From: Eubacteriales bacterium
GTDB lineage: Bacteria > Bacillota > Clostridia > Oscillospirales > QAKW01
Direction: 5' to 3'
Assembly (NCBI GenBank): GCA_045544795.1
Contig: JAZPZR010000017.1
Coordinates: 1-34,285 of the forward strand
Length of the DNA stretch: 34,285 bases
A model generated the notes under the pieces. That model saw only the letters and a list, made by a program, of their open reading frames with translations. It did no database searches and was not told the origin of the DNA. The position numbers were made by a program, and so were the translations under genes. Shown piece by piece: positions 1 to 33,573 of the stretch. How positions within the stretch are numbered: the first letter of the stretch is position 1; every line of letters begins with the position of its first letter.

Positions 1-91
1 GACCCGCTGAAATTCGTACAAAACAAGGCGGGTCGTCGAGGGCGCCGACCCCTACAAAATAATTATAAAACATCCCGCAAAACCGCAATTT
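1..91. repeat. Truncated REP/REPIN-like palindromic element (GTAG-type REP pair plus AT-rich arm and 21-bp terminal motif)
   Basis: 29..55 CGGGTCGTCGAGGGCGCCGACCCCTAC is the reverse complement of a GTAGGGGTCGG..CGACCCG hairpin; 1..7 GACCCGC pairs with 28..34; 45..91 matches the reverse complement of 34239..34285 at 44/47 nt. Confidence 0.8.
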
Positions 92-136
92 ATGCGGTTT
101 TGTTGCCAAACTACCCCAAAAAGAAATATAAACCGA

Positions 137-165
137 TTTAACTTGGCAAAAGTATGTGCTATAAT
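137..165 (+). promoter_or_regulatory. Putative sigma-A promoter (extended -10)
   Basis: TGcTATAAT at 157..165, weak -35 TTTAAC at 137..142 with a 17-nt spacer, ahead of RBS GGAGG at 189..193. Confidence 0.6.
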
Positions 166-206
166 TTTCATAATCAATATTGTGTTTTGGAGGATTCACT
201 TTTAAA

Positions 207-1763
207 ATGATATATTCTTCAAAAAATTCAGAGCTGATACAGGCGGACGGAGCGCTCGGCAGCGCGCTTATACGGCAGGACACCTATCGGTGCGTAACTC
301 CGTATAGTGAGGACGTCTGCTTTTCCATGCTCTACTCGCACAGAGTTGTCGAGATAAGCATGATAGTTGACGGAAGCGGTATACACAAGGTACTGGGTCA
401 GGCTATCCCCTGCGGTGTGGGTGACATATACATAATCAACGCAAACGTCCCGCACAGATACTTTGCATCGGAAGAGGGCGCGCCCCTTACTGTAAGACGG
501 CTGCTCTTTGACCCGAAGGACTGGCTTGAGGGAGAGCTTGCAAACGCGGCAAGTCCCGACTTCTGCTACGGTCTGTTTTCGGAAAACCCCATCACCGTCT
601 ACGCCATGCTTACAAATCAGGTGATGAACAGGATAGTATCGCTCTGCGACTCGGTGACGCTTGAAATGCTTGAGAAAAAGAGCGAATGGCGCAATTCCCT
701 CAGAGCATACCTGTCACTTATAATGATAGCGCTTAAAAGGTACGTAAACACGTCACTCAAAAACATTCCCAATACCGACCCTTCGGTATGGAATCCCGTT
801 TCGGCGGCGCTTACGCTTGTAAACGAAAACTACGGCGACCCAAACATGACGCTTGAGAGCATTGCCGATTCGTTTTACATAAGCAAGTCCCACCTCAGCC
901 GTCTTTTCAGACAGCTGACGGGCGTTTCCTTCTCGTCCTGTCTGCGTAAGATAAGAATCGCAAAGGCATGCTCGCTTCTCGTTGATACCGACATGACGGT
1001 AGAAAGCATTATGAAGACCTGCGGCATGCGTGACGTGACTTCGTTTTACAAAAGCTTCAGCGAATACACGGGGCTTACCCCGAATCAATACAGAAAAATG
1101 AATAATAAAGGAGAAAATACAATGAACATTCTTGCGGAAATTTCAGAAAATTTACAGAAGGGCAACACACCTGCCGACAAAGAAAAGGTACAGCAGGCAC
1201 TTGACGAGGGCATTGATGCAGGCGTTATTCTTACCGACGGTCTGCTTTCGGGTATGAGCGTTATCGGTGAAAAATTCAAGAACAACGAAATCTACGTTCC
1301 CGAAGTGCTTGTTGCGGCAAGAGCAATGAACGCAGGCACACAGATACTCAAGCCCCTTCTTGCGCAAAACGGCGTTGAAGCTACGGGCAAGGTATGTATC
1401 GGTACAGTTCAGGGCGACCTTCACGACATCGGTAAAAACCTCGTTAAAATGATGATGGAGGGCAAGGGTCTTGAGGTCGTTGACCTCGGTACAGACGTTT
1501 CTCCCGAAGCGTTTGTAAACACCGCAATTGAGCAGGACTGTCAGGTAATATGCTGTTCAGCGCTTCTTACGACCACGATGGGAGTTATGGAAGAGGTCGT
1601 TAAGCTTTGCGAGCAGAAGGGCATCCGCGACAAAGTGAAAATCATGGTCGGCGGCGCGCCCGTCAACGAAGAGTTTTCACAAAAGATCAGCGCAGACTGC
1701 TACACAAGTGACGCGGCAAGCGCAGCAGATGCCGCAGTTGAGCTTTGTAAAGCACTTCAGTAA
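207..1763 (+). CDS. AraC-family regulator (cupin + HTH) fused in frame to a C-terminal MtaC/MtbC-type corrinoid (B12-binding) protein
   Basis: Cupin HxxxE..H (SHRVVE...VPH) and AraC HTH (SHLSRLF...GLTPNQYR), then a cap domain (GMSVIGEKF..EIYVPEV) and the B12 motif GDLHDIGKN / SALLT / GGA. Start moved to ATG 207 because of GGAGG; internal AAGGAG (1108..1113) and in-frame ATG at 1122. Confidence 0.9.
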   Translation: MIYSSKNSELIQADGALGSALIRQDTYRCVTPYSEDVCFSMLYSHRVVEISMIVDGSGIHKVLGQAIPCGVGDIYIINANVPHRYFASEEGAPLTVRRLLFDPKDWLEGELANAASPDFCYGLFSENPITVYAMLTNQVMNRIVSLCDSVTLEMLEKKSEWRNSLRAYLSLIMIALKRYVNTSLKNIPNTDPSVWNPVSAALTLVNENYGDPNMTLESIADSFYISKSHLSRLFRQLTGVSFSSCLRKIRIAKACSLLVDTDMTVESIMKTCGMRDVTSFYKSFSEYTGLTPNQYRKMNNKGENTMNILAEISENLQKGNTPADKEKVQQALDEGIDAGVILTDGLLSGMSVIGEKFKNNEIYVPEVLVAARAMNAGTQILKPLLAQNGVEATGKVCIGTVQGDLHDIGKNLVKMMMEGKGLEVVDLGTDVSPEAFVNTAIEQDCQVICCSALLTTTMGVMEEVVKLCEQKGIRDKVKIMVGGAPVNEEFSQKISADCYTSDAASAADAAVELCKALQ

Positions 1764-1778
1764 TATACAGAGGTAAAT

Positions 1779-2795
1779 ATGTCAGATAAAAATATGAAAT
1801 TATGGATAGAATCGCAAAAGGGCACAGGTCCTAAAAAGGCGATGCCTATCCTCGCCTTTCCTTGCGTTAATATTATTGGTACAAATGTAAGACAGCTCAC
1901 ATCGGACAGCGAGCTTCAGGCAAAGGGCATGAAAGCGGTTGCAGACAGAACGGATGCGGCGGCAGCCATCAGCTTTATGGATCTTTCTGTCGAGGCGGAA
2001 TGCTTTGGCGCAAACGTTATCGTGACCGATGACGAGGTGCCCACCGTCAAGGGCAGAATAATCGGCAGTATGGATGATGCAAAGGCACTTGAAATTCCCG
2101 CTGTCGGCAGTAAAAGAACAAAAACCTATATCGACACCGTCAAAAAGGCAACAAAGCTCATCACCGACCGCCCCGTGATTGCGGGAATGATAGGTCCTTT
2201 TTCGCTTGCGGCAAGGCTTTTTGACGTGACAGAAATAATGATGGATTGCTACGACGATCCAGACGCGGTACATCTTGTGCTTGACAAGGTGACCCGCTTT
2301 CTTACCGACTATGCAAAAGCGTATAAAGAGGCGGGCGCTGACGGCATCATGATCGCAGAGCCTGTTTCGGGTCTTCTCTCACCCTCGCTTGAGGAGGAGT
2401 TTTCATCGCCCTACGTTAAAAAGATAGTAGATGCTCTGCAGGACGGCGGATTTTCAATAATCTATCACAACTGCGGTGACAACGTTGCAAAAATGCTTGA
2501 TTCCATCTTAACTATCGGCGCGCACGCCTACCATTTTGGCAACGCAGTCGATATGGAGAGGGATATTATCGCAAAGGTGCCCGCTGACACTCTCGTTATG
2601 GGCAACATCGACCCCGCGGGCGTACTGCGTATGGGCAGTCCCGATATTGTAAGGAAGGAGACGCTTGCACTGCTTGAAAAATGCGCAAAGTACCCCAATT
2701 TCCTGCTTTCATCGGGCTGTGATATCCCGCCCATGACACCGTGGGAAAACATTGATGCATTCTTTACTGCCTGCGGTGAATTTTATGGAAAATAA
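1779..2795 (+). CDS. UroD-superfamily methylcobamide:thiol methyltransferase (MtaA/CmuA-like)
   Basis: DLSVEAE..G, GPFSLA, Zn-ligand HNCG, GNIDP and SSGCDIPP motifs; directly follows the corrinoid domain; RBS GAGGT. Confidence 0.85.
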   Translation: MSDKNMKLWIESQKGTGPKKAMPILAFPCVNIIGTNVRQLTSDSELQAKGMKAVADRTDAAAAISFMDLSVEAECFGANVIVTDDEVPTVKGRIIGSMDDAKALEIPAVGSKRTKTYIDTVKKATKLITDRPVIAGMIGPFSLAARLFDVTEIMMDCYDDPDAVHLVLDKVTRFLTDYAKAYKEAGADGIMIAEPVSGLLSPSLEEEFSSPYVKKIVDALQDGGFSIIYHNCGDNVAKMLDSILTIGAHAYHFGNAVDMERDIIAKVPADTLVMGNIDPAGVLRMGSPDIVRKETLALLEKCAKYPNFLLSSGCDIPPMTPWENIDAFFTACGEFYGK

Positions 2796-3330
2796 AATTA
2801 TTGAAAAAGTAAAAGAGCTCGGCGCACACAAGTGCGCGTTTATCGACGCAAAGGATATTAAAACCGACCGCGCCTTTCGTGACATGTGCGAAATGAACTC
2901 ATGCGGTGTGTACGGCAAGTGTTACATGTGCCCGCCTGACGTGGGTGATATTGAAATGCTTATGAACGAGATCACAAGCTACGACCGCGCGTTTGTGTAT
3001 CAGACGGTGTCAGAGCTTGAGGACAGCTTTGATTTCGAGGGAATGGCAGCTGCAAAAAAGCGCACCTATCCCCTCGCGCAGGCACTGAGGTCTGTATTCT
3101 GCGAGGCGGGTATCACTGACGCACTTCACCTCGGCGCAGGCGGATGCGGTGTTTGCAAGGTATGTGCAAAAAGGACGGATGAGCCCTGCAGATTTCCCGA
3201 TAAAGCGATGCCCTCGCTTGAGGCATACGGCATAAACGTATCCGAGCTTGCAAAAGCCGCGGGCATGAAATATACTAACGGACAAAACACCGTCACCTAT
3301 TTCGGTGCTGTGTTATTTAAGGAGAAGTAA
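2785..3330 (+). CDS. DUF2284-like Cys-rich predicted metal-binding protein
   Basis: CxxNxCxxYGxxxxCPP and GxCxxCxxC..C..P...PSLEAYGI motifs; start taken at ATG 2785, overlapping the upstream gene end. Confidence 0.75.
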   Translation: MENKIIEKVKELGAHKCAFIDAKDIKTDRAFRDMCEMNSCGVYGKCYMCPPDVGDIEMLMNEITSYDRAFVYQTVSELEDSFDFEGMAAAKKRTYPLAQALRSVFCEAGITDALHLGAGGCGVCKVCAKRTDEPCRFPDKAMPSLEAYGINVSELAKAAGMKYTNGQNTVTYFGAVLFKEK

Positions 3331-3331
3331 T

Positions 3332-4417
3332 ATGAGTATAAATATGGATAAGCTTGCTGAGCGTTACGAGAGCTTCTGGAACCGTGAAAACGAGGACAGA
3401 CCTATCGTAAACATGACTACAAGAGCGTACAGGATACCTGTTGAGCTTGACGAAAAGCACAAGACCTTCCGCGATGCTTGGCTTGATACCGAGTACGTTA
3501 TCAAAAAGGCAAGACAGTCGATGGATGCCACCGTTTATCTGGGCGAAGGCTATCCCGCGCTCAACCCCAACCTCGGCCCCGACCTTGTCGGTGCTGTCTG
3601 CGGCTGCGAGATCGAATTCGGTGAGATAACAAGCTGGGCAGAGCCGTGTATTGAGGATTACGAGGCGTTTGGCGAAATAAAGTTTGACGAAAACAATCCT
3701 TATTGGAAAAAGATATGCGAGATAACACAGGCGGCGCTTGACGATTCAAAGGGTGACTACGTAGTCGGAATTACCGACCTTCATCCCGGCGGCGACGCGG
3801 TGGTTTCTCTTCGCGGCTCGGAAAATTCCGCATTTGACCTTTACGATTATCCCGATGAATTCAAAAAGACGGTGTGGGATATATTTCCCGTTTTCAAGGA
3901 GATGACCGCCCGTCTTCACAATATGATATCTGAAAAGCAGAAGTTTTGTTCCTGCTGGATGGGCGTTATCCACCCGACAGAGCTGTGGTACCCCACATCC
4001 TGCGACTTTTCCTGCATGATATCACCCGATAATTATAAGGAATTTATTCTGCCCGAGCTTTTAGAGGAGATAAAGTGGCTTCCCAACTCCATTTATCACC
4101 TTGACGGACCTGACGCTCTGCGCCACCTCGACACCCTGCTTGAAATAAAAGAGCTCAAGGGTATTCAGTGGGTATACGGCGCAGGTCAGCCCACCGCAAA
4201 GCATTGGATAGACGTGTATAAAAAGATTCAGGCTGCCGGCAAGGTCGCGCAGATAGGCTGCAGCGCAGAAGACCTCATCCCGCTTTGCGAGGCGCTCGAC
4301 CCCCGCGGTGTACATATAAGATGCGGTGTGCCCGACAGGGAAAGCGGTGAGCATCTTATTGCCGAGATGGAAAGAATTTGCAAGCAAAAACGCGGTCAGT
4401 TTTCGTTTGTGAAATAA
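3332..4417 (+). CDS. Second UroD/MetE-like TIM-barrel protein, candidate substrate-specific corrinoid methyltransferase
   Basis: NLGP, DLHPGGD, SCDFSCMISP, YHLDGP and IQWVYGAG motifs typical of UroD-like proteins in corrinoid operons; RBS AAGGAG before ATG 3332. Confidence 0.65.
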   Translation: MSINMDKLAERYESFWNRENEDRPIVNMTTRAYRIPVELDEKHKTFRDAWLDTEYVIKKARQSMDATVYLGEGYPALNPNLGPDLVGAVCGCEIEFGEITSWAEPCIEDYEAFGEIKFDENNPYWKKICEITQAALDDSKGDYVVGITDLHPGGDAVVSLRGSENSAFDLYDYPDEFKKTVWDIFPVFKEMTARLHNMISEKQKFCSCWMGVIHPTELWYPTSCDFSCMISPDNYKEFILPELLEEIKWLPNSIYHLDGPDALRHLDTLLEIKELKGIQWVYGAGQPTAKHWIDVYKKIQAAGKVAQIGCSAEDLIPLCEALDPRGVHIRCGVPDRESGEHLIAEMERICKQKRGQFSFVK

Positions 4418-4452
4418 AAAAAGAGGACGGTGTACACCGTCCTCTTATTTTT
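4416..4452. terminator. Bidirectional intrinsic terminator
   Basis: Perfect 26-bp palindrome AAGAGGACGGTGTACACCGTCCTCTT (4421..4446) with A-tract before and T-tract after, between convergent genes. Confidence 0.9.
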
Positions 4453-4460
4453 ATCGGTTG

Positions 4461-5783
4461 TTATTTCTTAACAACTGTATACCACGTATCTGCACCGTGT
4501 GTTTCGGTAACTACGGTATAGCCCTCGGCTACGTAACTGCCGTCGCCGTCATGGCTTACTCTCGGATCAAAGTTAATAAACGTACCGCCGTAAACTGTAA
4601 CTACACCCTCACGGCTTTCGTTAACGGTATATTTTTCAAAGCCTTTCCAATTGAACGTACCGCCATAGATATTAATTTTACCTGCGCGGTTAGCATAGAT
4701 ACCCTCGCAGTAATTGCTGCCTTCCAACGTAAAATCATCGGAATCCTGAATCCAGTTACCGCCGTATATATTGACTTCAGTCTCACCGCTTGCGCCTGTG
4801 CACCAGATAAACTGACCAATACCGCCGTTTATTTTAATATTACCCTCACCGACAATATCTACCTTTGCGCCGCCCAGTGCATAGATAACACCGTAGAATT
4901 CTTCATCAGGTACGTTTACTATAATATCATGCCCGTTAAGGTCGATCTGAGCATCATACTTAGCATAAAGGGAATATCCGCTTCCGAGACTGTCAATAAC
5001 CAGGTCGTCGTTAATCGCAATTTTTGCACCCGGAGTTTTCATAGCAGTTCTTAAGTCGCCGACTGACGCGACATAAACTACTTCGGGTGACAGTCCCGCA
5101 TCATAATCGTTACCGAACGAGTCGATTTCAGCCTCTGTCTGAATTGCAAGCAACGACAGACCAAACTCGATAGAAGGAACGGTATCACCGCGATAGTTAG
5201 CCTCATTACCGACTTCCTCAGGCATGTATACAACCAGAGCAATATACTGCTCTTCACCCGCAGCCATAGATACCGTCTTTGATGTATACTCAGTAAGCGG
5301 GGTGCCGTCGCCTGCGACAGCGGCAGCCTGCGCAGTTTCACGTGTGTAAGCGACAGGAGCTGTATTTGTCGGATAGGTAGCAGAAAACTTAAGTATCTCT
5401 GATAATCTGACATCACCGCCGTCTGCATTTTCACCGACAGTCTCGGTAACAGGTGTTACCTGAAGCTGATATTTGAGTGCAAGAGTGCCCTCGTTTTTAA
5501 TTTTAAGATAGGTGACCTCAGTATGTCCCGGCTCCCAGAGACCCTTTGTCTGACCCACAGGTGTGACGAAAACATCGCCTGCGCCGACAACGGAGGTATA
5601 CGTACCGTCGGGAGTATTTGCATAGTACATTTCAACGTCAAGATTGCCCGCAATAATCTTGTTATTGCCCGAAACAACAGAATCTGTAAACCATGCAAAC
5701 GTAGTACCCATAAGCATAGCCACACAAAGCATAAGTGACAATATGCTCATAAATAATGCGCGTCTTGTGGTGTTCTTTTTCAT
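4461..5783 (-). CDS. SipW-class signal peptide protein (TasA/camelysin-like N-domain plus C-terminal repeat domain)
   Basis: MKK..RR + hydrophobic core + GTTFAWFTD..GNLD signature; WEPG and KNEGTLALKY; C-terminal (I/V)xxYGGx(F/W) repeats; RBS AGGAGG. Confidence 0.8.
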   Translation of the reverse strand: MKKNTTRRALFMSILSLMLCVAMLMGTTFAWFTDSVVSGNNKIIAGNLDVEMYYANTPDGTYTSVVGAGDVFVTPVGQTKGLWEPGHTEVTYLKIKNEGTLALKYQLQVTPVTETVGENADGGDVRLSEILKFSATYPTNTAPVAYTRETAQAAAVAGDGTPLTEYTSKTVSMAAGEEQYIALVVYMPEEVGNEANYRGDTVPSIEFGLSLLAIQTEAEIDSFGNDYDAGLSPEVVYVASVGDLRTAMKTPGAKIAINDDLVIDSLGSGYSLYAKYDAQIDLNGHDIIVNVPDEEFYGVIYALGGAKVDIVGEGNIKINGGIGQFIWCTGASGETEVNIYGGNWIQDSDDFTLEGSNYCEGIYANRAGKINIYGGTFNWKGFEKYTVNESREGVVTVYGGTFINFDPRVSHDGDGSYVAEGYTVVTETHGADTWYTVVKK

Positions 5784-8414: not shown

Positions 8415-8616
8415 AAATTGTGGTTTTGCGGGATGAAAAGCCTCCCTTGCCTAAAGGGAGGGGGACCGAGCTTGCTCGGTGGAGGGATTTAGTTTTTACG
8501 TAAAAACATTGTAAATACAAGTATTTTTGCATCTTTGAATCCCTCAGTCTCGCATACGCTCGACAGCTCCCTTTACAAGGGAGCCTAAGGTTTGTTTCCC
8601 CGTTAAACCGCAATTT
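8415..8616. mobile_element. ~200-bp MITE/REPIN-like element: terminal inverted motifs enclosing an inverted pair of double-hairpin repeats
   Basis: Left end AAATTGTGGTTTTGCGGGATG, right end reverse complement AAATTGCGGTTTAACGGGGAA; inner units 8438..8489 (+) and 8538..8586 (-) share CTCCCTTG..AAAGGGAG + second hairpin + GAGGGATT. Confidence 0.65.
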
Positions 8617-9388
8617 ATCTGTTTTTATTTTGTTTTGAATAGTTTACGGGACTTATGCCTGTGTACTGTCTGAACATTTTTGAAAAGTGGTAGATACTGT
8701 TATACCCCACACTTTCCGCCACCTGCCCGACCGATTCAAAGTCGCTGTTTAAAATCGCCTTTGCCTTTTGTATACGCAGGTTGTGCAGATACTTCATCGG
8801 CGGTACACCGTAAACCGACACAAAGCATTTTCTGAAATAGACGGTGCTCATTTTGCAAAGTTCTGCCAGCATATCGTTTGTAACGTTACTGTCAAAATAC
8901 TGCGTGTGTATATAATCTGTCGCGGGCTTCAGTACAAGCGCTTTTTGCGGATGTACAGGCTCCGCTTGTGCCGATCTTATCAGAAAAAGCAAAATTTCAT
9001 ACAGGTAATAATAGCACTCCGTCTTTTTGGAACCAAGGCTTTTTTCGATTTTTTCAAAATCATTTATGATAAGTGAGTTATCTCTTATTTCAAAGCAGTC
9101 AAAATCGGAAAGCGTGCTGTTTGCATCAAATTCGATAAGGATGCACTCGCCCGCCTTTGTACACTCCCACGAGTAGTCGCATCCCTTCGGCAAAATCACG
9201 GGATGATAGCGGTCGGACAGCACCTTTTTATTACCTACAGTATAAATCGTTTCGCCTTTTACCTTAAGTACAACCGCCCAGCTTTTGCGGTTGTGTCTGT
9301 GAGTTGTAATTCCGACGGGAGAATTTAGCAGACGGTTGGCAGAAAATATATTTGTGACGGTCAGATCAGAAACAGAGCTTATAAACAA
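8615..9388 (-). CDS. AraC-family transcriptional regulator
   Basis: C-terminal AraC HTH (MSTVYFRKCF..PMKYL..VAESVGY..HFSKMF..G.SP); TTG start with RBS GAGGTG; divergent from the 9518..14336 operon. Confidence 0.9.
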   Translation of the reverse strand: MFISSVSDLTVTNIFSANRLLNSPVGITTHRHNRKSWAVVLKVKGETIYTVGNKKVLSDRYHPVILPKGCDYSWECTKAGECILIEFDANSTLSDFDCFEIRDNSLIINDFEKIEKSLGSKKTECYYYLYEILLFLIRSAQAEPVHPQKALVLKPATDYIHTQYFDSNVTNDMLAELCKMSTVYFRKCFVSVYGVPPMKYLHNLRIQKAKAILNSDFESVGQVAESVGYNSIYHFSKMFRQYTGISPVNYSKQNKNR

Positions 9389-14521: not shown

Positions 14522-16837
14522 CTATTTCAAAGGACAGTTAACTATACATTTTTCGCCTGTGACAGGTCTGAATTTGAATACGGGGTCCTGCTGACGAAGT
14601 GCATCTGCAAGATTATCCGCGGTTATAGTTTCGGGGCAGGGGATATCGGTAAAGTTACCCGTGTACATGTTACCTTCCTCAGCAACAAGCGCAAATCTTG
14701 TTGCCCAGTCACAGCGGAGCGCATCTACAGGAAGGTAGGTGATCTTTTTACCCGCGACGTCAAGCTCTGTAAGTCTTTCCTTTTTGAGCGCGCCCGTGGG
14801 ACATACGGTAAGGCACTTTTCACAGCCTGCGCATGCAGCCGCAAGACCTTCCTTCACCTCGTCGCTTTCAAGGTCGGCATTGGTAACGATAGCAACAAAG
14901 CGCTGATGTATTCCGTACTCCTCAGTTACAACAGAGCCGTTAAGCGCCATTTTGCCGATTCCCGCGCAGACCGCCTCAAGCGCGTTACAGGATGCGTCGT
15001 TAAACTGACCGCGGGGACTTCCGACAGTCGAGCCTGCGCCCGTGAGATTATGCGAGTAGACCGCCTCGTAGCCGAGCGCATTGAGGCTTCTGCATACCGA
15101 GTATGCAAGATGGCCTGTCAGTCTGTTTACCTCATACTGCGTAAATACGTACGGTCCTACCGACTCTGCAGGCGGCTTGCCGACACGCTCTGCAGGTGTT
15201 TCGGGGTAATGCATACCGAGTACGATGACCGACTTTGCGTCCTTGAGATAGTCGCTCATATTGTTAAACTCCCTTTTTTCCTCCGTAACTACAGGGTCAA
15301 AGGGCATCATACGTGTATTTTTATCTTCAACGACAAGCTGTTTTTCGTCCTTGCGGATGCTTCTTAACTGCTCTACTATTGAATCAATATCCTTTGCGGA
15401 TGCAACGCCGAAGAGGTCTGCGCCTTTATCCTTGGCAAGCTGTCTGAGCTGTGCCTTGAGATTTTTGGCGGGCGCTATGGATGAAAGGTCGGTTGCCGCT
15501 TTATCAACAAAAGGAGCAGAGGTAAGTACGAGCGAGGTACGGATAAACGTATTTTCCGTCTTTTCGACCTTGCAAAGAGCACGGAACGGCTCATGATCCA
15601 TTCTTGTCTTGGGAAGCGCGGAATAACCGAGTGTTTCAAGCTCACGGCAGACGTCAAGCTCGGTAAAGTCAACGTTGAACTGCGCGATCCTTCCGTAGCT
15701 GTCAAGCGCGCTTGCGCGTGTTTTATGACAGCTGTCAAAGCTTTCGATATGCGCCATGCTTCCGTCATGGTCTATCTTCGCCTCTGCGGGAAGCTGATAG
15801 CGTGAGGTGAGCAGTATCGCGCCGACACCGTCGGGAAGCTCTGTTTTAATATCAATTCCCGCGCCTTCAAGCGACTCTTTTGATATAAAGTGTACGCTGT
15901 CAAGGTCCCATGCGCTTGCATGAGAGAGAACCTTATCGTATACCTGACGGTGCACGTCAAGCTCCGAGGGTGTCACGTGGCGGATGCGTCTTGCCGTCTT
16001 TTTGCAGTAATCCTCATCCCAGTTGCGAAGATGCTTTGGCAGACAGACCTTAAGGCAGACACCGAACTCACCGCCGCGCATTCCGTATTTTGCAACGTGC
16101 TCAAGAAGCACCTTTTCGTCCACCTTTTCGGGAATGGGAAGGTCGAGGTCGATATCAAAATGCTCGCCCCATGCACAGCGCCAGAGATTTTTGTTGCAGA
16201 AGATGTGGTCCTTGCCCTCTATCACAACGTTTTTTGTGCCGTTTACTTCCTTGCGGTATGCGTTTGTCGGACATTTTCTTATACACTCGCCGCACAGGTC
16301 GCAAAGCTTGGGACCGTTGTAAAGGGGAGTAGGTGTCAGCTCCGCCTCTGTGATAATTGAAATAAATCTGTTTCTTGCGCCGTATTCGGGAGTGATGCAA
16401 AGACCGTTCCAGCCAAGCTCACCGAGGCCCGCGCAGACCGCGCTGTAGATATGGCTGATATCGGGCGCAAAGGTCGCGTCCATCTCTTTATATCCGCGGT
16501 ATCTCCATATATTCGAGCTTGCTATCGGCACCGTCTCATAGCCGAGATCGTCAAGCATTCTCGCAATTTTAAAGGAAAGCACGTCAAGCTTGTCGTTCAT
16601 TATGTACTGAATACGGTAAGGACCCATCACCTGCGGATGAACCTCGCCGTCAAGCTCAATTGCTGCATCGGGATGATGTACCGCGCAGACTATAACCGAC
16701 TTTGCCGTAGGCAGAATTCCCTGCGGACTCATCTTTATCGGCGCATTCTCGTAGCGTTCAATATTTGCAATACCCACAAGGTCTGCGCCGAGACTGTAGG
16801 CAAGCTTTTTGACTTTTAAAGTAAGACTGTTTTCCAT
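14522..16837 (-). CDS. Multi-module epoxyqueuosine-reductase (QueG)/reductive-dehalogenase-superfamily protein, predicted cobalamin and Fe-S binding
   Basis: Two full modules, each GADL.G.A / AKSVIV / AVCAG(L/I)G / TxEYG / RF..I.T / CxxCxxCxxxCP / C.W / CxxxC, plus a degenerate middle module; start at the second ATG, 7 nt from AAGGAG. Confidence 0.8.
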   Translation of the reverse strand: MENSLTLKVKKLAYSLGADLVGIANIERYENAPIKMSPQGILPTAKSVIVCAVHHPDAAIELDGEVHPQVMGPYRIQYIMNDKLDVLSFKIARMLDDLGYETVPIASSNIWRYRGYKEMDATFAPDISHIYSAVCAGLGELGWNGLCITPEYGARNRFISIITEAELTPTPLYNGPKLCDLCGECIRKCPTNAYRKEVNGTKNVVIEGKDHIFCNKNLWRCAWGEHFDIDLDLPIPEKVDEKVLLEHVAKYGMRGGEFGVCLKVCLPKHLRNWDEDYCKKTARRIRHVTPSELDVHRQVYDKVLSHASAWDLDSVHFISKESLEGAGIDIKTELPDGVGAILLTSRYQLPAEAKIDHDGSMAHIESFDSCHKTRASALDSYGRIAQFNVDFTELDVCRELETLGYSALPKTRMDHEPFRALCKVEKTENTFIRTSLVLTSAPFVDKAATDLSSIAPAKNLKAQLRQLAKDKGADLFGVASAKDIDSIVEQLRSIRKDEKQLVVEDKNTRMMPFDPVVTEEKREFNNMSDYLKDAKSVIVLGMHYPETPAERVGKPPAESVGPYVFTQYEVNRLTGHLAYSVCRSLNALGYEAVYSHNLTGAGSTVGSPRGQFNDASCNALEAVCAGIGKMALNGSVVTEEYGIHQRFVAIVTNADLESDEVKEGLAAACAGCEKCLTVCPTGALKKERLTELDVAGKKITYLPVDALRCDWATRFALVAEEGNMYTGNFTDIPCPETITADNLADALRQQDPVFKFRPVTGEKCIVNCPLK

Positions 16838-16865
16838 AAGCATACTCCTTCATTTTATTGTCTAA

Positions 16866-16960: not shown

Positions 16961-16981
16961 AGACCTACGAGGTGAGTGAAT

Positions 16982-17788
16982 ATGAAAATCAACGCTCTGG
17001 CGCACGCATCCATCAATCAGCTTGCAGTTGTCGACCTTCGCATTGAGCCATGTCACGTTGCTGCATGCCACAGATTTGAAATGAAGCCCGTACCTATAGA
17101 CAGGTTTGTCTATATAACCGAAGGAACGGCGGTTTTTTCCTTTGGCAACGAAACGCTCTGCGCAGGCAAAAACGATATGGTCTATCTGCCCTGTGATACC
17201 GCCTACCGTTCCAAGTGGCAGGAAAATGCCGATTTTATGGTGATAGACCTTCTGCTTCACGATGCGGACGCAAAGCCGATCCGTTTTGACGACAGGGCGG
17301 GTGTTTTATTTTGCGACAGACACGGCACCTACCGCGGACTTTTGGAGGAACTTGCATCAAAAGCAAAAGCATCGGGGCCTTTCGACTGGCTTGAAAGACT
17401 GTCGCTTTCATTTAAGCTTTTATATGAAATGGCAAGGGATACCAACCGCACACAGCTTGATGAAAACAGCCGTAAGATAAAGGCGGGACTTTCATATCTC
17501 ACACATAATTTCGCGCTTGATTTTCCCATTGAACAGCTTGCAAAAATGTGCGGTATGTCCGAAGGCAGCTTTCGCAGGATATTTTCCGAATGTATGGGAA
17601 TGTCACCTGTGGAATACCGCAACAGACTGCGTATAAACCGCGCAACAGAGCTTCTTAAAACGGGGGAGTACACGGTGAGCGAGACGGCGGATGCCGTGGG
17701 AATTCATGATATAAAATATTTCAGTAAACTTTTTAAAAAATACGCGGGCGTCACCCCGCGCGCGATAAGAAAAGCGGGCGGAGAGTGA
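16982..17788 (+). CDS. AraC-family transcriptional regulator
   Basis: Cupin N-domain; HTH LAKMCGMSEGSFRRIF..SPVEY..YFSKLFKK..GVTP; RBS GAGGTG. Confidence 0.9.
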   Translation: MKINALAHASINQLAVVDLRIEPCHVAACHRFEMKPVPIDRFVYITEGTAVFSFGNETLCAGKNDMVYLPCDTAYRSKWQENADFMVIDLLLHDADAKPIRFDDRAGVLFCDRHGTYRGLLEELASKAKASGPFDWLERLSLSFKLLYEMARDTNRTQLDENSRKIKAGLSYLTHNFALDFPIEQLAKMCGMSEGSFRRIFSECMGMSPVEYRNRLRINRATELLKTGEYTVSETADAVGIHDIKYFSKLFKKYAGVTPRAIRKAGGE

Positions 17789-30041: not shown

Positions 30042-30111
30042 ATTAACATAACGATATGGCACTTTGTTGCCAAAAAACATTAAAAATGTGCTATTTTTTT
30101 ACGAGGTTACA

Positions 30112-30885
30112 ATGCATCCGAAGCTTCTGGTGTCAAGAGAACGAAAAAATAAAATATTTTGCATCCACCGTCACAAATCCACAGGTTCAACACAGCTTCA
30201 CTTTCATTCAAACGTCGAGTTGCTTAGCGTAAACGCAGGTAACGTCGACGTGTGGATAAACGGAAAGTATCGCCGTCTCGGTGCAGGTGATATGGCGGTT
30301 TCATTAAGCTATGATGCCCACCGCTACGAGCCTGTGGAGGTGGCAAACACGTCTTATATTATCGTGCCCGCCTCTATGTGTCAGGAACTGTCGGGTAAAT
30401 CGGCATACGACCCGTTTATCTGCGATAAAGAACTGTATCATTCCGTTGATAAGCTTACAGAACTTGTTGCCGATAATAAAAACGAACTGCTTACAAACGG
30501 TGCGGTCAGTGTTATTTTCGGGCTGATTATCGAGCATATCCGTTTTACGGAGCGTGACGGCTCTGTCGGTGCGGACGGTACGTCACAGGTGCTTTTGTAC
30601 CTGCACGATAATTTCAAAAGCAATATTACACTCCAATCGGTGTCGGCAGCGCTCGGCTATAATCCCAGTTATCTTTCACGTATGTTTCACGAGACGACGG
30701 GTATTACCTTTAATTCCTATCTGACTGTAATACGGCTTCGCGAGGCAGTAAAACTGTTAAAGGAGGGAAAAAAGGTGTCTTTTTGCGCTTATGAAAGCGG
30801 GTTTAATTCAGCGCGCACCTTTTACCGCGCGTTTTCCGATGAATTTTCCTGTACACCGAAAGAATATTTAAAAAGCCAGTTATAA
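30112..30885 (+). CDS. AraC-family transcriptional regulator
   Basis: Cupin HFH..VE...H; HTH GYNPSYLSRMF..ESGFNSARTFYRAF...TPKEY; start at ATG 30112 after GAGGT. Confidence 0.9.
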   Translation: MHPKLLVSRERKNKIFCIHRHKSTGSTQLHFHSNVELLSVNAGNVDVWINGKYRRLGAGDMAVSLSYDAHRYEPVEVANTSYIIVPASMCQELSGKSAYDPFICDKELYHSVDKLTELVADNKNELLTNGAVSVIFGLIIEHIRFTERDGSVGADGTSQVLLYLHDNFKSNITLQSVSAALGYNPSYLSRMFHETTGITFNSYLTVIRLREAVKLLKEGKKVSFCAYESGFNSARTFYRAFSDEFSCTPKEYLKSQL

Positions 30886-31789: not shown

Positions 31790-31803
31790 AAAGGAGAATG
31801 ACC

Positions 31804-33573
31804 ATGAATATTTCAGCGCTTATCTATCTGCTTCTGTTTATCCCCTTTATGATACTTTTTGCCGTATTCGGCGCAACCTTTATGACGGCAGGCTACAAAA
31901 AAGACCTCGGACGCTCGCTCATATCACTCGGCGCGTCGGTTAGCGCAGTAATCATCAGCTTTTTTACCTCAAAGCTGTTTGCGTGGGCGCTGTCAAAGCT
32001 TTTTGGCGGCATTATTTCAAAGATAGTGCCCAAAGACAGCGGTGTGATGGCAGGCTTGATCGAGGGCACGGCGGCAGGTGTTATAAAAATAGTCCTGTCA
32101 CTCCTGCTTTTCGGCACGTTTTTTGCTATCACTCTGGGTGTTTTCAAAACTATATTTAAAAATCACCTGTGCGGCGCATGGCTTGACAAATTAAATCCCG
32201 CAACAAGCGGGTCAAAATGGGGCGGCCTCGGCGTACGTTTTGTCGATGCGCTCCTCGTTGTAATAATGCTTTCACTCCCGCTTTACGGCACTATTGCAAC
32301 GGTCGTCCCGCCTGTAAGCTCGCTCATGCAGATGTCAGAGCCAAAAGAGGCTGACGATGCTCTGACACTCACAAAAGCAGGCAAAAGCGCACTTTCTGTA
32401 AGCTACATGGATACGGCGGCAGAGCCCGCGCCCGCACCTCAGAAAAGCGGTGACAACGTCGCTCTTGAAATTGTGCAGATGATAGAAAAGCACCCTGTCC
32501 TCATCCCGTACACTTACGGCCCTGCAGAATGGGTGTATTCGGGTCTTTCAAGCTTTTCAATGAACGGAAATTCGGTTGATGTCAGCCGTGCCGCCGAGGC
32601 GGTGGCAGGTCTTACCGAGCGTTTTGTCGGTTTGATTGAAATAATTGACAGCGGGGACGAGGACGTCATTATTTCAAAAACGGAAGACATCGTTTCTTAC
32701 GCACGCGACAACGTTATTGAAGAGCGTTGGTTTTACAACATGTGCATGGCGCTTTTGTCCGAGTTTGACAAGGCTATGGCAGAGGAGCGCCTGAATTTCG
32801 GACAGGGAGAGCAGTTTATTTTACAGCTCCGCCCCCTTTTTGACATGTCTTACGGGGAATTTAAGAGCAACGGCGTTGCACTCCTCGACTTTTTGGAGTA
32901 TCTTTTAAGTGAAGAAAATATAGTCATGTTCAAAGGACAAAACGACCTCACCTACGATCAGACGACGGAAAAAACGGACGAGTTTTTATCAAAGCTCGGT
33001 GCTCTCATAAACCACAGCGAGCAGTCGGTTGCCGCAAAGCAGTTTATTTATATGGCGGTATTTTCGAGCAAGTTTTCAATGCAGGACATGACCGATATGT
33101 TTAAAAATTGGAATGACGGAAAGCTTACAGACGCTGATGACCAAAAGCGTGATGCATTTCTCTTTTTTAATCTGACTACCGGCGGCGGTACGTTTGACGT
33201 GATAACGCTTGTCTCAATGCATCCGCTGTTTGGAAACGAAAGCGCTATGCTCCTTTTACAAAGCGAAAACGTGGCAGAGCAGCTTAATTGGGAGTTTGAC
33301 ACATATGTAGGCGCAGACGAGATAGAAAAGGCGATTACAGACGAATCTGTAAAGGCTAAGCTCACAGCAAAGCTTGATTCTTATAAGGATGCGTCAATTG
33401 CCGACGTTTCTCTGCTTATCGGTAATGACGATCTATATGAGTACGTAAAGGACGTTATTGCCAATAAGCTGAGCATTGACCTTTCACAAAAGCCCAGGTA
33501 TTATTCAGAGGACGGGTTTTTGCTGATACCCGACAGTGAGCAGGTTACTGTAGTACAGCCTTCGTTTTTCTGA
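31804..33573 (+). CDS. Membrane protein with CvpA-like N-terminal TM region and a large acidic C-terminal domain
   Basis: 4-5 TM helices with GYKK.L.RSLISL and KWGGLG..FVDALL patterns; start at the second ATG, 7 nt from AAGGAG. Confidence 0.5.
   Translation: MNISALIYLLLFIPFMILFAVFGATFMTAGYKKDLGRSLISLGASVSAVIISFFTSKLFAWALSKLFGGIISKIVPKDSGVMAGLIEGTAAGVIKIVLSLLLFGTFFAITLGVFKTIFKNHLCGAWLDKLNPATSGSKWGGLGVRFVDALLVVIMLSLPLYGTIATVVPPVSSLMQMSEPKEADDALTLTKAGKSALSVSYMDTAAEPAPAPQKSGDNVALEIVQMIEKHPVLIPYTYGPAEWVYSGLSSFSMNGNSVDVSRAAEAVAGLTERFVGLIEIIDSGDEDVIISKTEDIVSYARDNVIEERWFYNMCMALLSEFDKAMAEERLNFGQGEQFILQLRPLFDMSYGEFKSNGVALLDFLEYLLSEENIVMFKGQNDLTYDQTTEKTDEFLSKLGALINHSEQSVAAKQFIYMAVFSSKFSMQDMTDMFKNWNDGKLTDADDQKRDAFLFFNLTTGGGTFDVITLVSMHPLFGNESAMLLLQSENVAEQLNWEFDTYVGADEIEKAITDESVKAKLTAKLDSYKDASIADVSLLIGNDDLYEYVKDVIANKLSIDLSQKPRYYSEDGFLLIPDSEQVTVVQPSFF

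Follow-up and report, generated by a model that had tools for sequence, protein, structure and literature searches.

Introduction

CarH and LitR are MerR-type, B12-dependent photoreceptor repressors, and AerR and PpaA are B12-binding regulators as well; to our knowledge, the B12-dependent transcription factors known so far (CarH/LitR, AerR) are light sensors. Here we describe a gene at positions 207..1763 (+ strand) of a 34,285-nucleotide stretch of DNA from an Eubacteriales bacterium (GenBank assembly GCA_045544795.1, contig JAZPZR010000017.1, positions 1 to 34,285; this whole stretch is referred to as the window), which encodes an AraC-type regulator joined in one reading frame to a corrinoid protein. 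Its product resembles CarH/LitR and AerR/PpaA in being a transcription-control protein with a B12 module composed of a four-helix bundle and a Rossmann domain. However, its DNA-binding domain is of AraC type and lies in the middle of the protein, behind a cupin, and its B12 module is of the methyltransferase-carrier type. The hosts of the fusion also differ, being gut anaerobes that live in the dark, and the fusion gene appears to yield, in addition, a free carrier. An AraC regulator with a methyl-transfer corrinoid module would be a B12-linked switch that works in the dark and responds to metabolism, present in many uncultured Clostridia of gut and rumen.

Genes in which an in-frame internal start gives rise to two proteoforms are well known, CheA, IF2 and ClpB being examples. 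Internal starts have been mapped genome-wide (bioRxiv 10.1101/520783), and Cas11b provides a further case (10.1101/2024.10.02.616218). As far as the available parts of these reports describe such genes, they share with the gene studied here a Shine-Dalgarno (SD) sequence and an in-frame ATG within a longer open reading frame (ORF), leading to a self-sufficient C-terminal product. One mark of a two-product gene was found here too, in the form of a conserved SD sequence located 8-9 nt before an in-frame start in 64 of 80 loci. The gene differs from the known cases in that its short product would be a complete component of an enzyme system and its long product a transcription factor, and in that the evidence for it is comparative only.

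Corrinoid methyltransferase operons provide a second point of comparison. According to the available text of a study of Eubacterium limosum (PMC13602510), the first gene of the mta operon encodes the AraC-type activator MtaR, and the operon also encodes the corrinoid protein MtaC. In both systems, as far as that text goes, an AraC-type gene heads a corrinoid methyltransferase operon that includes a corrinoid protein, but the MtaR described there has a PocR sensor domain instead of a cupin and is the product of a separate gene, unjoined to the corrinoid protein. The bacterial mlp clusters, in the accessible text of the Kountz and Balskus preprint (PMC10418091), encode MtaA-like URO-D proteins and a single corrinoid protein but lack a tetrahydrofolate methyltransferase, a composition that the locus described here resembles. 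The window operon, compared with the clusters in that text, has one clear MtaA-like gene, and its activase is encoded on another contig; the main text of the preprint contains none of the terms AraC, fusion and DUF2284. Stand-alone MtaC, MtbC, MttC and MtgC proteins align with the window carrier from end to end and share the DxHxxG, SxL and GG motifs with it, but the window carrier is tethered to a regulator. Internal in-frame starts are already known; no description of an AraC-corrinoid carrier fusion, or of DUF2284 in such a role, was found in the literature searched, subscription journals and supplements being outside that search.

Our comparative data make it rather likely that the gene is an old fusion, maintained by selection, which heads a four-gene corrinoid methyl-transfer operon and from a single mRNA gives both a regulator with a tethered B12 module and a free carrier.

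Architecture of the fused gene

A single open frame runs from 180 to 1763. Its first ATG, at 207, gives a protein of 518 residues, and there is no stop before the TAA at 1761-1763. The full-length gene (207..1763, + strand, as are all features within it) encodes an AraC cupin, an AraC helix-turn-helix (HTH), a linker and a corrinoid protein. The cupin ligand-binding domain occupies 339..596 (residues 45-130) and scores 28.3 bits with AraC_binding (PF02311, cut-off 21.1); Cupin_2, at 25.0 bits, is the sole listed Pfam domain match under its curated cut-off (27.2). The HTH, at 861..1097 (residues 219-297), scores 75.4 bits with HTH_18 (PF12833, cut-off 33.6) and 66.5 bits with HTH_AraC (PF00165, cut-off 26.6), and it also matches solved AraC-family HTH domains in a PDB sequence comparison. 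By Pfam, the gene therefore has the composition of the AraC/XylS family, an AraC HTH with a cupin ligand-binding and dimerisation domain N-terminal to it. Among related sequences the cupin residues G56, G58 and G122 are invariant, and H60, C69, H83 and C120 are kept in at least 90%.

The HTH is followed by the linker MNNKGENT (1098..1121, residues 298-305), which is AT-rich and intergenic-like, has little predicted RNA structure and marks a dip of the AlphaFold pLDDT to 64. Beyond the linker are a four-helix cap domain (B12-binding_2, PF02607, 60.6 bits; 1131..1352, residues 309-382) and a Rossmann-type B12-binding domain (PF02310, 89.4 bits; 1389..1700, residues 395-498). DxHxxG, SxL and GG, in this order, form the signature of base-off/His-on corrinoid binding. 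All of its residues are present in the window carrier, the first motif as DLHDIG (nt 1416-1433, within the fuller string GDLHDIGKN) and the others as SALLTTT and GGAP. Residues 307-515 align end to end with the solved corrinoid proteins 1y80, 7xcn, 4jgi and 3ezx, with E values of 1e-33 to 1e-47. The preliminary description of this DNA had read a cupin, an AraC HTH, a short linker and a complete MtaC-like cap and DxHxxG domain in one frame, and both the frame and the Pfam matches bear this out.

The carrier part falls below all curated cut-offs of the methyltransferase families, scoring 185 bits with TIGR02370 (cut-off 215), 215 with MtgC_2 (370), 159 with MtbC (350) and 121 with MtaC (420). 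By sequence, the B12 half is a relative of methyltransferase corrinoid proteins that lies outside every named substrate-specific family, and because its scores are below every curated equivalog cut-off, no substrate system is assignable to it. The PDB sequence comparison gave no solved structure that covers both the AraC and the B12 halves. In the AlphaFold model of the whole protein the domains are confident (pLDDT 85.6), but the pTM of 0.48 is too low for their relative arrangement to be read; a complex prediction for the AraC part (residues 1-299) and the carrier (306-518) returned a score of 0.00 and is used here neither for nor against any explanation. The cap loop at residues 320-327 (nt 1164-1187) reads NTPADKEK in the window, while at least 90% of relatives have K322 and V324. 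In other strains A1177T restores V324, and the window change is lineage-specific and situated in the otherwise most conserved helix of the carrier.

Conservation of the fusion

The junction at 1090..1125 is crossed with no gaps by contigs of three DNA runs from different studies (X1 record 2, 826-1442; X7 record 18, 74-1231; X8 record 27, 1072-1389). The sole difference among the runs at the junction is A1115G, a synonymous GAA>GAG change, and over 1-4500 the only indels listed among the runs are at 3335 and 4447. Thus, the contigs of all three runs agree that the junction contains no indel error.

To avoid a bias towards fusions, species-representative genomes of Clostridia were scanned with a pattern for the AraC HTH only, and the best 80 of 111 relatives were kept; pooling of these loci with others, mostly from a carrier-keyed genome scan, gave 83 distinct AraC-subfamily ORFs. 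Of these ORFs, 80 continue in frame into a DxHxxG domain. Of the other three, L207 is truncated at the end of its contig, L216 carries an in-frame TAA within the linker, and L235 has suffered a deletion. In L235 (5780-5990) the AraC linker runs into the last ~35 residues of the DUF2284 gene, the deletion having taken the carrier, the URO-D gene and most of DUF2284, and a genome search found no carrier-type protein in this genome. Among the 80 fused loci, the linker, taken as the stretch between the HTH and the cap motif, has 18 different lengths between 10 and 31 residues, always in frame, and the other two reading frames have stops in 75 of the 80 linkers. Because the length varies in frame while the other frames hold stops, the open frame of the linker must be kept by selection.

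The proteins give the same picture. The best 120 cluster representatives from a protein search (54-98% identity) all share the AraC HTH and both B12 domains, and 118 of them are 496-568 residues long, the exceptions being P0027 (476 residues) and P0082 (843 residues). The 98%-identical protein occurs on 12 contigs. P0082, which is 58% identical and has 11 member sequences, contains the AraC HTH, both B12 domains and URO-D in one protein and thus joins regulator, carrier and methyltransferase in a triple fusion. The sources of the fused genes are metagenome-assembled genomes (MAGs) of Oscillospiraceae, Acutalibacteraceae, Pumilibacteraceae, Lachnospiraceae (Acetatifactor) and unclassified Clostridia, so that the fusion spans at least two orders of Clostridia, with AraC parts that are down to 36% identical. 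On these comparisons the fusion is old and under selection, and is neither an artefact nor a recent event. The architecture that had been noticed in the window alone thus recurs across other genomes.

Searches keyed to the carrier recovered fewer fusions. A DNA search in 40 relatives matched mainly the carrier half and turned up no close orthologue of the fusion within the genus; a carrier-keyed genome scan gave about 9 fused loci, and a metagenome scan gave almost only stand-alone carriers among the matches listed. The preliminary description had stated that MtaC-type proteins normally stand alone, and this holds for most loci, as in every stand-alone carrier locus among the matches listed a stop codon precedes the carrier gene. 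A distant AraC-family HTH gene is the immediate upstream neighbour of the carrier gene in 16 of 152 stand-alone loci, at gaps of -3 to 283 nt. A recurrent gene pair, in which an AraC-type gene is followed by a carrier gene, is a plausible origin of the fusion. For mtaR of the acetogens, too, such a pair has been described (PMC13602510).

A probable internal start in the linker

The linker DNA had been said to hold a strong AAGGAG-N8-ATG start, and this is the case: the SD sequence AAGGAG (1108..1113, + strand) lies 8 nt before the ATG at 1122-1124, which is in frame. The internal frame (1122..1763, + strand, coding to 1760) starts at M306 and would give a free corrinoid methyl carrier of 213 residues. 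Met occupies the M306 column in 108 of the 120 representatives and is usually preceded, two residues earlier, by K-G-E, the rest of the linker being variable.

Pairing of the window junction with the anti-SD sequence amounts to -8.8 kcal/mol. An in-frame ATG was taken as a good internal start if its SD pairing reached -6 kcal/mol. Such a start is present in 64 of the 80 fused loci, with a median pairing of -8.9 kcal/mol; the control, 1063 other in-frame ATGs of the same ORFs, had a median of -2.4 kcal/mol, and 7.9% of them reached -6. The 64 loci represent 57 distinct junction strings, and GGAG is found in 62 of the 64 junctions, at a spacing to the ATG of 8 nt (58 loci) or 9 nt (4 loci). The Gly codon of the site is GGA in 65 of 65 cases, whereas GGA accounts for 527 of 2354 Gly codons (22%) across these ORFs. 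In four loci GGAG is shifted relative to the codons (AAG GAG, read K-E), and in two more GAGG takes its place (AGA GAG GAA). Since GGA is fixed and GGAG is kept in other registers, the conservation is at the level of the nucleotides and not of the peptide.

Low G + C content and weak RNA structure are typical of real initiation regions. Among 54 distinct junctions, the G + C content is 29% compared to about 52% in the flanks, and the minimum free energy is about -2 compared to about -10 kcal/mol per 50 nt (z = 2.3). Not only the linker frame but also the putative internal ribosome-binding site is conserved. An internal promoter was considered as a source of the short product; the best candidate, at 1423-1450, matches only 9 of 12 positions, lies inside the carrier part and is unsupported.

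The preliminary description had proposed that the gene has two products, a carrier of ~213 residues and the 518-residue fusion. This proposal is strongly supported, on comparative evidence only, by the conservation of the SD sequence and ATG, the fixed codon and the complementarity of carrier genes described below, and initiation at ATG 1122 most likely yields the free carrier. In databases the fused genes are labelled 'cobalamin-dependent protein' or 'helix-turn-helix domain-containing protein', and because of these labels metabolic reconstructions would overlook the free carrier.

Complementarity with free carrier genes

A good internal start is missing from 16 of the 80 fused loci. Eight of these have a separate free carrier gene in the same locus, which in seven is located 32-101 nt downstream and in each of the seven has its own GGAG-ATG. 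For the other eight, whole genomes were searched, and seven contain a stand-alone carrier ORF elsewhere (214-235 residues, 59-76% identity). In total, 15 of the 16 no-start genomes have a separate gene for a free corrinoid protein. L186 is the sole one in which no free carrier was found, and there the ATG is still present, with a weak SD sequence (-5.2).

A second carrier gene is found nearby in only 1 of the 64 good-start loci. No stand-alone carrier ORF was found in 10 whole good-start genomes sampled across the tree, nor in the window's own genome; the other carrier-like matches in the 10 genomes were ORFs of 690-900 residues with 33-42% identity, presumably MetH-type by size, and two small fragments at contig edges. 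In the natural split L216, the in-frame TAA in the linker is followed by AAAGGAGAC-N6-ATG, and the carrier behind it is the only one in the genome.

This complementary pattern is the strongest result of the analysis. Because carrier genes complement the loss of the start, the free carrier would seem to be indispensable, with the full-length protein no substitute for it, and the internal start would supply the carrier in most species. The gene thus exists in four natural states: the start is retained and no second carrier gene exists, the start is missing and a duplicated gene encodes the free carrier, a stop divides the gene, or a deletion has degraded it. Together these states form a natural experiment of unusual clarity on internal starts of translation.

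The tethered B12 module and a proposed mechanism

Loci with a free paralogue also bear on the role of the B12 domain that remains attached to the regulator. In these loci, the tethered domain keeps GDLHDIGKN, SALLTTT and GGAP, and its identity to the window carrier is 60-72%, compared to 73-81% for the free copy. Most substitutions in the tethered copy affect the first cap helix, whose sequence in working carriers (EISENLQKGKAK) hardly varies. As its motifs are intact and its cap helix has diverged, the tethered domain looks subfunctionalised towards a regulator role. Judging from this pattern of substitutions, it probably still binds corrinoid but is freed from docking to methyltransferases, and it is probably kept for regulatory sensing of corrinoid supply or state. 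The preliminary description had suggested that the fusion ties transcription to corrinoid loading, methylation or redox state; the intact B12 motifs beside a separate carrier gene lend this possible role only indirect support.

In the explanation that we favour, the operon would consist of the fusion, the MtaA-like methyltransferase, the DUF2284 protein and possibly a URO-D-like protein, in this order. Initiation at ATG 207 would give the 518-residue AraC-type regulator that carries the tethered B12-binding module, and initiation at the internal AAGGAG-N8-ATG would give the 213-residue free corrinoid protein, which would be the working methyl carrier between the methyltransferases of the operon. 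The full-length protein probably binds conserved blocks upstream of the gene (see below) and controls its own operon, while the tethered B12 module would report corrinoid availability or state, beside whatever ligand the cupin binds.

A more specific proposal, which we put forward only tentatively and consider unlikely, is that the tethered module acts as a sensor of the catalytic state. The substrate methyltransferase of the operon would methylate it like the free carrier, and its methyl-Co(III), Co(I), Co(II) or empty state would move the cap helix directly attached to the last helix of the HTH, so that turnover and B12 supply, and not a diffusible ligand alone, would switch the regulator. 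Two unequal ribosome-binding sites on one mRNA would set a ratio of low regulator to high carrier.

Alternative explanations

Several other explanations must be weighed against two products with a sensing B12 module. The full-length protein might be the only product, serving both as regulator and as working carrier, with the internal SD-ATG a functionless relic of a two-gene ancestor. Such a start could be inherited, given the AraC-family genes directly upstream of the carrier in the 16 stand-alone loci, and the case for two products is comparative, the short product being inferred. A relic should decay, yet GGAG, the 8-9 nt spacing and the GGA codon are fixed over the 57 junction strings while the neighbouring bases and the linker length vary. 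Moreover, all 15 genomes that are truly without the start have a separate free carrier gene, which would be needless if the full-length carrier sufficed, and we regard a single product as distinctly improbable. It is also doubtful that two products are made but that the tethered B12 module is a passive passenger, which only couples expression or stoichiometry while regulation proceeds through the cupin site alone. The predicted structure (pTM 0.48) has no interdomain contact, and the conserved cupin residues listed above could form the only sensor, both of which would suit a passenger. However, a passenger would be lost or frameshifted in so stop-rich a linker, yet 80 of 83 ORFs are in frame, and the tethered copy retains all its B12-binding motifs even beside a free paralogue 32-101 nt downstream, its changes being concentrated in the cap helix, the part that working carriers conserve most strongly.

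In the CarH proteins, as in the fusion, the DNA-binding domain precedes a four-helix bundle and a Rossmann B12 module, which would allow a light sensor in which photolysis of adenosylcobalamin controls DNA binding. This is very improbable here. The B12 part scores as a methyltransferase carrier (MtgC_2 215 bits, TIGR02370 185 bits), with the four solved corrinoid proteins named above as its best solved relatives; the Pfam search gave no MerR domain, the feature that defines CarH/LitR; and the gene is the first of a methyltransferase operon in anaerobes of the gut and rumen. CarH proteins have the motif W-x9-EH, which is impossible in this cap as it contains no tryptophan. An artefact or accident, finally, has next to no chance. 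The preliminary description had offered a recent loss of the AraC stop codon as an alternative, pointing to the TAATAA at 1103-1108; this is out of frame and would come into frame only if the A5 run at 1094-1098 became A6, so that either an indel in this run or a lost stop could have joined two ordinary genes. Such an out-of-frame TAATAA is ordinary because the linker is AT-rich and 75 of 80 linkers carry stops in other frames. The three independent assemblies without an indel, the occurrence of the 98%-identical protein on 12 contigs, the 120 further fused clusters and the 80 fused relatives among 83 at species level refute an artefact, and the spread over at least two orders, with AraC parts as divergent as noted above, refutes a recent loss.

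The explanation in which one mRNA yields a regulator with a tethered B12 module and a free carrier is itself weakened by several points. Every fused locus from public collections comes from a MAG, and the evidence for translation at 1122 is comparative; contigs from one RNA run (X13) cover 142-565 and scattered gene pieces, and give no evidence of expression or of transcript ends. The upstream blocks and the promoter-like site are mere hints of DNA binding and promoter control by the regulator, autoregulation and an effect of B12 would be further putative steps, and no contact between regulator and B12 module that could explain signalling is predicted in the AlphaFold model. With regard to complementarity, the window genome is 81% complete, and because MAGs are incomplete the absence of a carrier gene is not proof of true absence; further carriers may be represented by G046:C109 and G050:C226, two fragments at contig edges, and the 10 good-start genomes were hand-picked across the tree and are not random. 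The independent events are few, with 6-10 start changes on the tree of AraC parts. The association between start and free carrier has a Fisher p of 3.6e-6, which ignores relatedness, and among independent pairs 4 agreed with the expected association, none contradicted it and 2 were ties (sign-test median p 0.125).

The operon and its upstream region

Downstream of the fused gene, the + strand encodes an MtaA/CmuA-like methyltransferase of the URO-D family (1779..2795, 338 residues), with 213 bits for PF01208 and 136 bits for TIGR01463, below the cut-off of 235. A DUF2284 protein, a Cys-rich predicted metal-binding protein, follows at 2785..3330 (+ strand; PF10050, 166.8 bits), its start being uncertain between ATG 2785 and TTG 2752. 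The fourth gene (3332..4417, + strand) encodes a 361-residue protein that is possibly a distant URO-D-like methyltransferase. It has no Pfam, NCBIfam or PDB-sequence match, and a feature search links it, as a lead only, to URO-D-like clusters. A 6-base deletion at 3335, at the start of this gene, is present in two of four runs, and because of it the true start may be further downstream. A two-way terminator hairpin at 4421..4446, with an 11-pair stem and T runs on both strands, closes the four-gene operon.

Related loci show much the same neighbours. Downstream of the fused gene, a URO-D homologue is found in 54 of 83 tabulated loci and a DUF2284 homologue in 42 of the 83, many loci ending too early to tell, and often 1-3.5 kb of variable genes lie between the fused gene and the URO-D and DUF2284 genes. 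The latter two form an adjacent pair in which DUF2284 follows URO-D in most related loci; in one clade (L023, L190, L199, L238, L243, L248 and L250) their order is reversed. The RACo/RamA-type activase of the window genome is on another contig, C127.

Upstream of the fused gene, the best sigma-70-like promoter match in 1..4700 is at 138..165 (+ strand) and consists of TTAACT, a 16-nt spacer and a TG-extended TATAAT, with 10 of 12 matches; it is a consensus match only, and in total no more and no fewer sites were found than expected from shuffled sequence. Two conserved blocks, at about 91-106 and 131-144 (+ strand), were evident in an alignment of four sequences (the window and three relatives, 59% mean identity) and are a candidate operator for the AraC part, the second block overlapping the -35 region. 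The SD sequence for the full-length start, GGAGGA (190..195, + strand), is 11-12 nt before ATG 207, a longer spacing than the 8 nt of the internal start. At window positions 1-150, contig depths of 2067 and 4439 were recorded, compared to about 6 elsewhere, with many loose ends at 20-75 and hairpins at 30-51 and 78-102. This region is probably a short repeated or terminator-like element common to many organisms or places.

Elsewhere in the window, two large ORFs are nearly without family, one at 14522-16843 (- strand, 773 residues), which has sub-threshold 4Fe-4S matches only, and one at 31798-33573 (+ strand, 591 residues), which has none. The 34 kb also encode three more AraC-family regulators, at 8615-9388 (- strand), 16976-17788 (+ strand) and 30064-30885 (+ strand), none with a B12 domain, and the window's own genome contains about 30 AraC-type matches.

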